64,000 bases of DNA. Origin: Escherichia coli. Its GTDB lineage: Bacteria > Pseudomonadota > Gammaproteobacteria > Enterobacterales > Enterobacteriaceae. The notes beneath the pieces are model-generated. The model was not told the DNA's origin. It did not search any database and worked only from the letters and a program-made list of their open reading frames with translations. The position numbers and the translations under genes were made by a program. This document shows positions 6,028-47,573 of the stretch, one piece after another (position 1 is the stretch's first letter; each line of letters starts with the position of its first letter). The stretch lies in the NCBI RefSeq assembly GCF_013315695.1, contig NZ_CP054353.1. One strand, given 5' to 3'.

Positions 6028-6789
6028 ATGGTTTCATCATTCACATCTGCCCCACGCAGCGGTTTTTACTATTTTGCGCAAGGCTGGAAGCTCGTCTCGC
6101 AACCTGGGATTCGGCGTTTCGTTATTTTACCGCTGCTGGTCAATATTTTGTTGATGGGGGGCGCATTCTGGTGGCTATTTACGCAGCTCGATGTCTGGAT
6201 CCCGACGCTCATGAGTTATGTTCCGGACTGGTTACAATGGCTGAGCTATCTGTTGTGGCCTCTGGCAGTCATCTCCGTGCTGTTAGTGTTTGGCTATTTC
6301 TTCTCAACGATTGCTAACTGGATTGCCGCTCCGTTCAACGGTTTATTGGCTGAACAACTGGAAGCAAGATTGACTGGCGCTACACCGCCAGATACCGGGA
6401 TTTTCGGTATCATGAAAGATGTGCCGCGAATCATGAAACGCGAATGGCAAAAATTTGCCTGGTATCTGCCGCGCGCAATTGTATTGCTAATTCTTTACTT
6501 CATCCCTGGTATTGGGCAAACCGTCGCGCCGGTACTATGGTTCCTGTTTAGCGCCTGGATGTTAGCCATCCAGTATTGCGATTACCCCTTCGATAACCAC
6601 AAAGTGCCGTTTAAAGAGATGCGCACCGCCCTGCGCACACGCAAAATCACCAATATGCAGTTTGGTGCTTTAACCAGCCTGTTTACGATGATCCCGCTGC
6701 TTAATCTGTTCATTATGCCCGTTGCCGTTTGTGGCGCGACGGCGATGTGGGTCGATTGCTATCGCGATAAACACGCCATGTGGCGGTAA
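6028..6789 (+). CDS. cysZ: Sulfate transporter CysZ
   Basis: 253-aa multi-TM ORF; upstream of cysK as in cys regulon. Confidence 0.9.
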
Positions 6790-6973: not shown

Positions 6974-7945
6974 ATGAGTAAGATTTTTGAAGATAACTCG
7001 CTGACTATCGGTCACACGCCGCTGGTTCGCCTGAATCGCATCGGTAACGGACGCATTCTGGCGAAGGTGGAATCTCGTAACCCCAGCTTCAGCGTTAAGT
7101 GCCGTATCGGTGCCAACATGATTTGGGATGCCGAAAAGCGCGGCGTGCTGAAACCAGGCGTTGAACTGGTTGAACCAACCAGCGGTAATACCGGGATTGC
7201 ACTGGCCTATGTCGCTGCCGCTCGCGGTTACAAACTTACCCTGACCATGCCAGAAACCATGAGTATTGAACGCCGCAAGCTGCTGAAAGCGTTAGGTGCA
7301 AACCTGGTGCTGACCGAAGGTGCTAAAGGCATGAAAGGCGCAATCCAAAAAGCAGAAGAAATTGTCGCCAGCAATCCAGAGAAATACCTGCTGCTGCAAC
7401 AATTCAGCAATCCGGCAAACCCTGAAATTCACGAAAAAACCACCGGTCCGGAGATCTGGGAAGATACCGACGGTCAGGTTGATGTATTTATTGCTGGCGT
7501 TGGGACTGGCGGTACGCTGACTGGCGTCAGCCGCTACATTAAAGGCACCAAAGGCAAGACCGATCTTATCTCTGTCGCCGTTGAGCCAACCGATTCTCCA
7601 GTTATCGCCCAGGCGCTGGCAGGTGAAGAGATTAAACCTGGCCCGCATAAAATTCAGGGTATTGGCGCTGGTTTTATCCCGGCTAACCTCGATCTCAAGC
7701 TGGTCGACAAAGTCATTGGCATCACCAATGAAGAAGCCATTTCTACCGCACGTCGTCTGATGGAAGAAGAAGGTATTCTTGCTGGTATCTCTTCTGGAGC
7801 AGCTGTTGCCGCGGCGTTGAAACTACAAGAAGATGAAAGCTTTACCAACAAGAATATTGTGGTTATTCTACCATCATCGGGTGAGCGTTATTTAAGCACC
7901 GCATTGTTTGCCGATCTCTTCACTGAGAAAGAACTGCAACAGTAA
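6974..7945 (+). CDS. cysK: Cysteine synthase A (O-acetylserine sulfhydrylase A)
   Basis: 323-aa ORF with PLP-binding lysine motif (SFSVKCRIG) and glycine-rich loop GVGTGGT. Confidence 0.97.
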
Positions 7946-7969
7946 TGCCAGCTTGTTAAAAATGCGTAA

Positions 7970-7996
7970 AAAAGCACCTTTTCAGGTGCTTTTTTG
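7970..7996 (+). terminator. Rho-independent terminator after cysK
   Basis: AGCACCT-tttc-AGGTGCT stem followed by TTTTT. Confidence 0.55.
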
Positions 7997-8328
7997 TGGC
8001 CTGCTTCAAACTTTCGCCCCTCCTGGCATTGATTCAGCCTGTCGGAACTGGTATTTAACCAGACTAATTATTTTGATGCGCGAAATTAATCGTTACAGGA
8101 AAAGCCAAAGCTGAATCGATTTTATGATTTGGTTCAATTCTTCCTTTAGCGGCATAATGTTTAATGACGTACGAAACGTCAGCGGTCAACACCCGCCAGC
8201 AATGGACTGTATTGCGCTCTTCGTGCGTCGCGTCTGTTAAAAACTGGCGCTAACAATACAGGCTAAAGTCGAACCGCCAGGCTAGACTTTAGTTCCACAA
8301 CACTAAACCTATAAGTTGGGGAAATACA

Positions 8329-8586
8329 ATGTTCCAGCAAGAAGTTACCATTACCGCTCCGAACGGTCTGCACACCCGCCCTGCTGCCCAGTTTGTAAAA
8401 GAAGCTAAGGGCTTCACTTCTGAAATTACTGTGACTTCCAACGGCAAAAGCGCCAGCGCGAAAAGCCTGTTTAAACTGCAGACTCTGGGCCTGACTCAAG
8501 GTACCGTTGTGACTATCTCCGCAGAAGGCGAAGACGAGCAGAAAGCGGTTGAACATCTGGTTAAACTGATGGCGGAACTCGAGTAA
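8329..8586 (+). CDS. ptsH: Phosphocarrier protein HPr
   Basis: 85-aa [26 protein letters not shown]... with active-site His15 context. Confidence 0.97.
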
Positions 8587-8630: not shown

Positions 8631-10358
8631 ATGATTTCAGGCATTTTAGCATCCCCGGGTATCGCTTTCGGTAAAGCTCTGCTTCTGAAAGAAGACGAAA
8701 TTGTCATTGACCGGAAAAAAATTTCTGCCGACCAGGTTGATCAGGAAGTTGAACGTTTTCTGAGCGGTCGTGCCAAGGCATCAGCCCAGCTGGAAACGAT
8801 CAAAACGAAAGCTGGTGAAACGTTCGGTGAAGAAAAAGAAGCCATCTTTGAAGGGCATATTATGCTGCTCGAAGATGAGGAGCTGGAGCAGGAAATCATA
8901 GCCCTGATTAAAGATAAGCACATGACAGCTGACGCAGCTGCTCATGAAGTTATCGAAGGTCAGGCTTCTGCCTTGGAAGAGCTGGATGATGAATACCTGA
9001 AAGAACGTGCGGCTGACGTACGTGATATCGGTAAGCGCCTGCTGCGCAACATCCTGGGCCTGAAGATTATCGACCTGAGCGCCATTCAGGATGAAGTCAT
9101 TCTGGTTGCCGCTGACCTGACGCCGTCCGAAACCGCACAGCTGAACCTGAAGAAGGTGCTGGGTTTCATCACCGACGCGGGTGGCCGTACTTCCCACACC
9201 TCTATCATGGCGCGTTCTCTGGAACTGCCTGCTATCGTGGGTACCGGTAGCGTCACCTCTCAGGTGAAAAATGACGACTATCTGATTCTGGATGCCGTAA
9301 ATAATCAGGTTTACGTCAATCCAACCAACGAAGTTATTGATAAAATGCGCGCTGTTCAGGAGCAAGTGGCTTCTGAAAAAGCAGAGCTTGCTAAACTGAA
9401 AGATCTGCCAGCTATTACGCTGGACGGTCACCAGGTAGAAGTGTGCGCTAACATTGGTACGGTTCGTGACGTTGAAGGTGCAGAGCGTAACGGCGCTGAA
9501 GGCGTTGGTCTGTATCGTACTGAGTTCCTGTTCATGGACCGCGACGCGCTGCCCACTGAAGAAGAACAGTTTGCTGCTTACAAAGCAGTGGCTGAAGCGT
9601 GTGGCTCGCAGGCGGTTATCGTTCGTACCATGGACATCGGCGGCGACAAAGAGCTGCCATACATGAACTTCCCGAAAGAAGAGAACCCGTTCCTCGGCTG
9701 GCGCGCTATCCGTATCGCGATGGATCGTAAAGAGATCCTGCGCGATCAGCTCCGCGCTATCCTGCGTGCCTCGGCTTTCGGTAAATTGCGCATTATGTTC
9801 CCGATGATCATCTCTGTTGAAGAAGTGCGTGCACTGCGCAAAGAGATCGAAATCTACAAACAGGAACTGCGCGACGAAGGTAAAGCGTTTGACGAGTCAA
9901 TTGAAATCGGCGTAATGGTGGAAACACCGGCTGCCGCAACAATTGCACGTCATTTAGCCAAAGAAGTTGATTTCTTTAGTATCGGCACCAATGATTTAAC
10001 GCAGTACACTCTGGCAGTTGACCGTGGTAATGATATGATTTCACACCTTTACCAGCCAATGTCACCGTCCGTGCTGAACTTGATCAAGCAAGTTATTGAT
10101 GCTTCTCATGCTGAAGGCAAATGGACTGGCATGTGTGGTGAGCTTGCTGGCGATGAACGTGCTACACTTCTGTTGCTGGGGATGGGTCTGGACGAATTCT
10201 CTATGAGCGCCATTTCTATCCCGCGCATTAAGAAGATTATCCGTAACACGAACTTCGAAGATGCGAAGGTGTTAGCAGAGCAGGCTCTTGCTCAACCGAC
10301 AACGGACGAGTTAATGACGCTGGTTAACAAGTTCATTGAAGAAAAAACAATCTGCTAA
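8631..10358 (+). CDS. ptsI: PTS Enzyme I (phosphoenolpyruvate-protein phosphotransferase)
   Basis: 575-aa ORF; operon context ptsH-ptsI-crr. Confidence 0.97.
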
Positions 10359-10398: not shown

Positions 10399-10908
10399 AT
10401 GGGTTTGTTCGATAAACTGAAATCTCTGGTTTCCGACGACAAGAAGGATACCGGAACTATTGAGATCATTGCTCCGCTCTCTGGCGAGATCGTCAATATC
10501 GAAGACGTGCCGGATGTCGTTTTTGCGGAAAAAATCGTTGGTGATGGCATTGCTATCAAACCAACGGGTAACAAAATGGTCGCGCCTGTAGACGGCACCA
10601 TTGGTAAAATCTTTGAAACCAACCACGCGTTCTCTATCGAATCTGATAGCGGCGTTGAATTGTTCGTCCACTTCGGTATCGACACCGTTGAACTGAAAGG
10701 CGAAGGCTTCAAGCGTATTGCTGAAGAAGGTCAGCGCGTGAAAGTTGGCGATACCGTGATTGAATTCGATCTGCCGCTGCTGGAAGAGAAAGCCAAGTCT
10801 ACCCTGACTCCGGTTGTTATCTCCAACATGGACGAAATCAAAGAACTGATCAAACTGTCCGGTAGCGTAACCGTGGGTGAAACCCCGGTTATCCGCATCA
10901 AGAAGTAA
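10399..10908 (+). CDS. crr: Glucose-specific PTS EIIA component (EIIA-Glc)
   Basis: 169-aa [42 protein letters not shown]... Confidence 0.97.
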
Positions 10909-42970: not shown

Positions 42971-43335
42971 GAGTCGCCGCCTGTGAAAAACTTTCGTGTA
43001 TCGTGACAATTTTTCGTCAGAGTAAATAACAAAATTCGGCAAGCGCGTTTAAAAGGTGAGGTAGATCACGAACAATGGGGAAAATACTTTATGCAAAGAA
43101 AATCACATACATCACATGAATACAAACAGGAGTCGATAAGTTTTATTTATCATATGTTACCCACCCCATTTTTAATGGTTCTTCGCATAACCCTATGTAG
43201 CATTTATAATAATTATCAGAATACATATCCCATGAACTGTTGTATTCTGAAAATATTATTATACTCACCCCATTTAAGGTACAACATAAACGATGAGTTT
43301 ATTCAGGGCATAAAAGAAATGGATGGATACCTGTA
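42971..43335. promoter_or_regulatory. Divergent AT-rich control region: eut operon promoter (upstream of eutS) and promoter of the glycosyltransferase gene
   Basis: 365-bp visibly AT-rich intergenic region between divergent eutS and the GT gene; the main eut promoter is known to lie upstream of eutS; individual sites not resolved. Confidence 0.4.
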
Positions 43336-47285: not shown

Positions 47286-47573
47286 TTGGTTGTTCCTTTC
47301 ACGTAACGTTCACAAATAAAGTGTGTGGGCAACAGCCCCTGCCCACAACGTGGCGCACATTATTACCTTGCCGGAGTCTACAGACTTTGAGCAAGTCCAA
47401 ACTCTCACCATTAATATAATGTTTTGGTAATAATCCTATAACACTGATGTTACCTGCTTAATCCAGCAATACCATGCCTGTCTGCTATGCTTTTTTGATG
47501 CGTTTAGCGAAATTTCTCAGAAGTGTGAATTAACGCACTCATCTAACACTTTACTTTTCAAGGAGTATTTCCT

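Follow-up and report, generated by a model that had tools for sequence, protein, structure and literature searches.

The cysK-ptsH intergenic region

The analysed window is a stretch of 64,000 nucleotides (64 kb) of Escherichia coli DNA, in which the open reading frames of cysZ (6028-6789), cysK (6974-7945), ptsH (8329-8586, with its ATG at 8329), ptsI (8631-10358) and crr (10399-10908) are all located on the plus strand. A preliminary description of this DNA had named the downstream gene ptsH, which is borne out by the reading frame at 8329-8586, and had drawn attention to the interval 8103-8185, in which it noted a perfect inverted repeat and a sequence resembling a Cra (FruR) half-site. Both motifs lie inside the E. 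coli cysK-ptsH intergenic region of 383 bp. At the cysK end, a terminator hairpin on the plus strand at 7968-7995, in which a perfect inverted repeat of 12 bp precedes a T-run, forms the upstream limit of the regulatory region.

Window position x corresponds to position x + 2,525,435 of U00096.3 and x + 2,523,457 of U00096.2. This conversion was checked against MG1655, from which the cysK-ptsH interval of the window differs by a single base, at 7983. The 396-bp cysK-ptsH interval was present in 5425 of 5426 complete genomes, and its identity was at least 99% in 5380 E. coli records. For comparison over longer distances, a PtsH-based scan yielded 80 loci of the Enterobacterales, from Escherichia to Yersinia, Serratia, Pectobacterium, Sodalis and Erwinia, and cysK was located upstream of ptsH in 79 of them. 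The alignment of the 80 intergenic regions contains conserved blocks with sharp edges, at 7966-8010, 8028-8034, 8049-8059, 8066-8090, 8110-8137, 8150-8160 and 8246-8328, and the cysK terminator hairpin is kept in the 80 genomes. The stretch 8186-8245 is unconserved among these loci and has been deleted outright in the Enterobacter/Lelliottia lineage.

Promoters and operators upstream of ptsHI-crr

The control of ptsHI-crr by Cra, CRP and Mlc is long established, and nothing reported here is new to the field. The preliminary description had also placed ptsHI under these three regulators, in agreement with the published regulation data. The literature on the promoters of the operon includes De Reuse and Danchin 1988, De Reuse 1992, Ryu and Garges 1994, Ryu 1995, Kim 1999, Plumbridge 1999 and Tanaka 1999. 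Three promoters, P0, P1a and P1b, are recognised in the literature.

Using 5'-triphosphate-enriched transcription start site profiling of mid-log cells in glucose minimal medium, Kim et al. 2012 reported three 5' ends for ptsH; their U00096.2 positions, 2531623, 2531717 and 2531756, correspond to window positions 8166, 8260 and 8299. The first of these, a G at 8166 on the plus strand supported by 42 reads and giving a 163-nt 5'UTR, is the mapped start of P1 (P1a). The P1a core occupies a conserved block on the same strand and consists of the -35 element TTGGTT (8129-8134), an 18-bp spacer and the -10 element CATAAT (8153-8158), a geometry that is compatible with the mapped start at G8166; the core sequence GCATAATG was present at the orthologous position in 68 of the 80 genomes. 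A candidate -10 element of P1b, TTTAAT, lies at 8160-8165 (plus strand), with a predicted start near 8172, as judged from geometry and from the promoter literature. P0, also on the plus strand, has a core at 8029-8057 that coincides with conserved blocks and comprises the -35 element TTGATT (8029-8034), a 17-bp spacer and the extended -10 element TGgTATTTA (8049-8057). Its start would lie near 8064 on the same two grounds, and is not among the ptsH 5' ends of Kim et al. 2012. Since the built-in sigma-70 scan returned no promoter in 7900-8400 at its thresholds, the promoter assignments rest on conservation, on geometry and on the mapped start. The interval 8103-8185 is the P1 promoter of ptsHI-crr, which has been mapped experimentally since the late 1980s.

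The highest CRP-matrix score of the whole window (16.5, as compared to a mean maximum of 13.6 in shuffled windows) was obtained for TGTGG-N6-TCAAA at 7992-8013, centred on 8002.5 and named here CRP site I. The matrix is approximate, and its training sites score between 8.3 and 18.5. Both half-sites of CRP site I are conserved in the 80-genome alignment around a variable spacer, and the CRP-like pattern TGTGN-N6-TCANA was found at the orthologous position in all 80 genomes. A P0 start near 8064 would place this site at about -61.5. CRP-like site II, TATGA-N6-TCAAT at 8120-8141 (centre 8130.5), shares 6 bp with the Cra operator and also overlaps the P1a -35 element. It is weak, its score of 8.5 being the second best in the intergenic region and at the low end of the true sites with this approximate matrix, and the loose pattern TNTGA-N6-TCANN was present in 43 of the 80 genomes. 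If the P1b start lies near 8172, CRP site II would be at -41.5 from it. Binding of CRP at ptsH was reported by genomic SELEX, and another paper, with reference to Ryu and Garges 1994, puts CRP binding at P1b. Elsewhere in the window, strong scores with the approximate CRP matrix were also given by AAGTGTGAATTAACGCACTCAT at 47521-47542 (14.8) and by AAAGGTGAGGTAGATCACGAAC at 43052-43073 (13.9).

The Mlc operator of P0, ATTATTTTGATGCGCGAAATTAA at 8067-8089, has the form TT-N9-AA with A/T at positions +/-11, and was identified both with a matrix and in a published scan. The NagC/Mlc matrix, symmetrised and with positions +/-11 masked, was derived from the ten NagC sites that the FITBAR paper gives in its Table 1. 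With it, 8067-8089 reached the best score of the window, 20.1, compared to 16.2-24.5 for the training sites and to a maximum of 17.7 for the shuffled windows. The genome scan with a NagC matrix in the FITBAR paper lists the identical 23-mer upstream of ptsH, at position 2531523, and A/T at +/-11 is a published mark of Mlc-type operators. The Mlc pattern was found at the orthologous position in 79 of the 80 genomes, and a P0 start near 8064 would place the operator at approximately +3 to +25. The Mlc operator at 8067-8089 and the strongest CRP site at 7992-8013 would serve promoter P0, and both lie outside the interval 8103-8185. The second-best NagC/Mlc-matrix score in the 64 kb (13.97) belongs to 8050-8072, which lies over the P0 -10 element, 17 bp upstream of the main Mlc site; this match may be a composition effect of an AT-rich promoter or an auxiliary site.

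The Cra-like motif was present as GCTGAATCGATTT; it occupies 8110-8122 and not 8108-8121, as initially given, an offset of 2 nt. This conserved core is followed by TAT, and the operator as a whole extends over 8110-8125 on the plus strand with a degenerate right half. The resemblance to a Cra operator that had been noted is supported by the consensus match and by the invariance of the motif across the Enterobacteriaceae, Hafnia, Serratia, Rahnella and Yersinia. When compared to the published Cra ChIP-exo motif, gcTGAAtCGaTTCAgc, 8110-8125 agrees at 12 of 16 positions, which are the contiguous first 12 bases, that is, the left half and the centre. Counting matches to this 16-bp palindrome has no discriminating power, given that 6 sites with at least 12/16 matches were found where 2.2 were expected. 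The degenerate 14-nt Cra consensus, RSTGAAWCSNTHHW, has a single exact match in the 64-kb window, at this operator, and is by itself a weak pattern, with at least one match in 44 of 100 shuffles; the exact 12-mer GCTGAATCGATT would be expected about 0.008 times per 64 kb under uniform composition. The significance of the motif comes from its position and its conservation, since GCTGAATCGATT was found at a constant distance from the ATG in 70 of the 80 orthologous regions, with a 5' flank that varies (20-60% identical). The distance from the centre of the operator to the mapped P1 start downstream of it is about 48 bp. Ramseier 1993 deals with the in vitro binding of FruR to the pts operon, and a cra deletion raises ptsHI transcription in Salmonella. 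On the grounds of consensus match and conservation, 8110-8125 is assigned as a deeply conserved, already known Cra operator that forms part of the P1 control region. A second similarity to the Cra palindrome (11/16), CTGGCATTGATTCAGC at 8023-8038 with the right half TGATTCAGC, overlaps the P0 -35 element; it is probably fortuitous, because its CAGC part is unconserved.

The reconstructed map was compared to the published architecture of the ptsHI-crr promoter region, which comprises P0, P1a/P1b, two CRP sites, a FruR box and an Mlc site at P0. In this architecture, P0 and P1 are reportedly separated by about 100 bp, the FruR box reportedly overlaps in part with the CRP site of P1, and the Mlc footprint is reported to extend from +1 to +25 of P0. 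CRP reportedly represses P1a and activates P1b, which constitutes a P1a/P1b promoter switch. The Cra operator overlaps CRP site II, which itself overlaps the P1a -35 element, so that Cra and CRP-cAMP would compete. As suggested by geometry and by the promoter literature, this competition could shift initiation between two close starts, G8166 for P1a (-10 element CATAAT) and a predicted start near 8172 for P1b (putative -10 element TTTAAT). A 2023 Science Advances paper claims direct binding of ampicillin to a 12-bp stretch of the pts promoter around P1b, in competition with CRP. The claim is an unusual one, and it concerns the region examined here, at approximately 8120-8175.

The inverted repeat at the P1 start

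The perfect inverted repeat TGACGT-ACGAA-ACGTCA is located exactly at 8165-8181, as had been described, with its end 148 bp upstream of the ptsH ATG. Considered as a repeat it is unremarkable and occurs at chance frequency. Perfect 6-bp inverted repeats with a spacer of 3-8 nt number 145 in the 64-kb window (2.3 per kb), and at least one of them was present in 41% of the shuffled 383-bp intergenic regions; the chance expectation of zero for this exact repeat sequence reflects only the fact that this exact sequence was searched for. Within E. coli, the repeat is 100% identical in 5388 of 5427 records. Across the 80-genome alignment its columns are 10-80% identical, which is a moderate conservation; the 5-bp arms, TGACG-N7-CGTCA, were found at the orthologous position in 26 of the 80 genomes and the complete 6-bp repeat in 4.

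The repeat begins one base before the mapped transcription start, G8166, and so covers positions -1 to +16 relative to the P1a start. It corresponds to the initial transcribed sequence of P1, and we consider that it most probably lacks a dedicated regulatory role and at most forms a weak hairpin at the 5' end. Its partial conservation in the E. coli-Salmonella-Klebsiella-Enterobacter group would then be due to its overlap with the start sites. To our knowledge, no role has been assigned to the TGACGT/ACGTCA repeat in the papers on the ptsHI-crr promoters.

The main alternative, which we regard as rather unlikely, is that the repeat acts in the RNA, where the P1a transcript would begin in a stem that stabilises the P1a-derived ptsHI mRNA. 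The 5' stem-loop of ompA stabilises its mRNA, and RppH needs unpaired 5' nucleotides. With no unpaired 5' nucleotide, attack by RppH and by 5'-end-dependent RNase E would be hindered. In favour of this possibility, the first base of the stem is G8166, a 5'-triphosphate-enriched start, and the first 20 nt of the transcript fold into GACGU-ACGAA-ACGUC as their minimum free energy structure (-5.7 kcal/mol, 95% of the ensemble, z = -1.9). The 5'-terminal hairpin is also part of the minimum free energy structure of the 180-nt leader, whose z is -2.9 as a whole. The centroid fold contains a 10-bp long-range helix between 8166-8175 and 8220-8229 (GACGUACGAA/UUCGUGCGUC, with one G-U pair), which competes with the 5' hairpin and, by eye, is retained in Escherichia only; this competition counts against the RNA reading.

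The comparative evidence on the hairpin points both ways. A repeat core of 4-5 bp, GACG...CGTC, is kept in most core Enterobacteriaceae, with a few changes that are compensatory or lead to wobble pairs. Pairing is maintained with an altered sequence in E. albertii (GATG/CATC) and in an Enterobacter sp. (L044; GGCGA/TCGCC), and through G-U pairs in K. michiganensis and Pluralibacter. Moreover, Enterobacter retains the hairpin even though the 64 bp after it have been deleted. A stem is present in about 30 of the 80 genomes. Against the RNA reading, it is broken in Leclercia, Kluyvera, Pseudocitrobacter, Cedecea and Buttiauxella, and no hairpin was found at the equivalent place in Serratia, Hafnia, Rahnella and Yersinia. 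The sixth pair, to which the repeat owes its perfect symmetry, exists in only 8 of 42 distinct sequences, and most species have a stem of 4 bp with a 7-nt loop, at -2.4 to -3.8 kcal/mol (z of -1.0 and -2.3 in the two that were folded). The covariation test, performed on six pairs in a gap-free alignment of 46 sequences from core Enterobacteriaceae with 500 column shuffles, was not significant for the repeat. The pairs were formed in 74.6% of cases as compared to 73.6% in the shuffles, 65 of the 500 shuffles scored as high, and there were three isolated double changes where 1.6 were expected. The RNAalifold consensus structure omits the repeat hairpin as well. The fixation in E. coli, the retention of the core, the compensatory changes and the retention in Enterobacter leave some scope for a function of the repeat.

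A further step would be a promoter-specific RNA switch. With a P1b start near 8172, inside the loop, P1b transcripts would lack the hairpin that P1a transcripts carry; if so, the Cra/CRP promoter switch would alter the protection of the 5' end and hence the stability of ptsHI mRNA. We consider such a switch improbable. If the repeat were a 5' hairpin specific to one P1 start, promoter choice would be linked to mRNA stability in a central metabolic operon.

It is very unlikely that the repeat is the operator of a further dimeric transcription factor that would repress P1 from its start sites. The perfect dyad is centred on 8173, over the mapped and the predicted start, which is a classic position for a repressor, and its arms are better conserved than its spacer in the core Enterobacteriaceae. 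The majority sequence of the other genera, AGCGAAACGT, resembles the left half-operator of the RbsR type of the LacI family, a likeness that can serve as a lead only. On the other hand, there is no significant excess over chance, the arms occur in far fewer genomes than the three operators of the region (26 against 70-80 of the 80), and in L044 and E. albertii they are wholly changed, to a degree incompatible with recognition by a sequence-specific protein. In addition, no second copy of the motif was found in the 64-kb window. We know of no further regulator reported at P1.

The preliminary description had suggested that the repeat might be a Cra, CRP or Mlc operator of ptsH; all three scans gave background values. 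For the NagC/Mlc matrix, the best score overlapping the repeat was 2.45, as compared to 16.2-24.5 for true sites, and the Mlc pattern search of the region returned 8067-8090 and nothing at the repeat. For the approximate CRP matrix, the best overlapping score was 4.9, as compared to 8.3-18.5 for the training sites, and the repeat was not among the CRP-pattern matches with up to 2 mismatches. The best overlapping 16-mer matched the Cra palindrome at 7 of 16 positions, and no RSTGAAWCSNTHHW match was found at the repeat. The geometry is wrong for all three regulators: the TT-N9-AA and the A/T-rich arms of an Mlc operator are missing; the arms TGACG/CGTCA stand at N7, and not at the N6 of a CRP site; and the repeat is a 17-bp odd-centred dyad, as opposed to the even, CG-centred Cra site. 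Considering also that better sites exist elsewhere (8110-8125 for Cra, 7992-8013 and 8120-8141 for CRP, 8067-8089 for Mlc), it is extremely unlikely that the repeat is one of the known operators, despite its location in the promoter region of an operon that all three regulators control.

A comparison with the assigned operators led to the same result, as neither the Mlc-type site at 8067-8089 nor the best CRP site at 7992-8013 is at the repeat. Because these two sites are located outside 8103-8185, the suggestion is refuted for the repeat on the terms in which the preliminary description itself had put it. Two other types of candidate were also rejected. A MetJ-, PurR- or RbsR-like site was compared by eye with consensus sequences and amounted at most to a half-site, CGAAACG, and an intrinsic terminator or attenuator would require a U-run, which does not follow the repeat.

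In summary, we propose, with a probability of roughly 0.6, that the interval 8103-8185 contains the P1 promoter and a Cra operator, and that the repeat serves none of Cra, CRP and Mlc as a binding site and corresponds to the initial transcribed sequence of P1, most probably with no dedicated function. The analysis places the operators in the window, the Cra site within this interval and the Mlc and main CRP sites outside it. It also holds a negative lesson, namely that a perfect 6-bp repeat in a famous promoter is no evidence of an operator.

The ptsH leader and comparison with known systems

The 83 nt that precede the ptsH start codon (8246-8328) are almost invariant in the 80 Enterobacterales and surpass the operators for Mlc, Cra and CRP in conservation. 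Within them lies a hairpin at 8261-8294 with stems at 8261-8270 and 8285-8294, the core CTAAAGTC/GACTTTAG and a variable loop. This hairpin, which was the positive control for the covariation test applied to the repeat, covaries significantly: 93.6% of its pairs were formed, 6 pairs had double changes where 1.4 were expected, and none of the 500 shuffles scored as high. Three compensatory pairs occur in Pluralibacter gergoviae. The hairpin lies between the mapped 5' ends at 8260 and 8299, and the Shine-Dalgarno region would be enclosed in a second helix, UCC.CAAC/GUUG.GGA, that is also predicted. Apart from noise, an Rfam search of the 5'UTR returned no family at E <= 1. We know of no description of the element at 8261-8294, which is a more interesting by-product of the analysis than the repeat.

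Some further observations concern the leader. In the seven Enterobacter/Lelliottia loci (L002, L008, L010, L013, L019, L038 and L052), the intergenic region measures 317 bp as compared to about 380 bp; this lineage lacks 8182-8245, precisely the unconserved stretch, so that the repeat is joined directly to the conserved 5'UTR module. In the window, the repeat is directly followed by a small hairpin at 8182-8196, GCGG-TCAACAC-CCGC, at the position where other genera carry different stems, for instance GGCAA-GAAG-TTGCC in Citrobacter. The differing stems hint at a structure that is kept without its sequence. Within the coding sequence, 8348-8357 (ptsH codons 7-10) is perfectly complementary over 10 nt, CCATTACCGC, to positions 158-167 of the annotated UhpU sRNA (L082, 2731-2996, minus strand); the shuffle probability of this complementarity, in a search for exact complementary runs, is about 0.04. 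The mRNA of ptsH is mentioned in a PNAS paper of 2025 that deals with UhpU.

The elements of the region can be compared to four known systems. The first are the ompA-type 5'-terminal stabilising stem-loops of E. coli mRNAs, reportedly described by Emory, Bouvet and Belasco in 1992. Like these, the stem of the repeat starts at +1 of a mapped primary transcript, but, at 5 bp and -5.7 kcal/mol, it falls far short of them in length and strength, is restricted to some lineages and lacks significant covariation. Among the operators of Mlc and NagC (ROK family), 8067-8089 is a high-scoring member with the Mlc-type A/T at +/-11; it is located 76 bp upstream of the inverted repeat, which, with its score of 2.45, falls outside this group. 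In 8110-8125 the left half and the centre are perfect and the right half is degenerate, as is usual for the Cra (FruR) operators of enteric bacteria; the site belongs to the promoter of an operon under Cra control, is kept across the Enterobacterales and has nothing unusual about it. Finally, the reconstructed map agrees with the published architecture of ptsHI-crr in the spacing of the promoters, in the start mapped at 8166, in the Mlc site just past the P0 start and in the overlap of the FruR and CRP sites.
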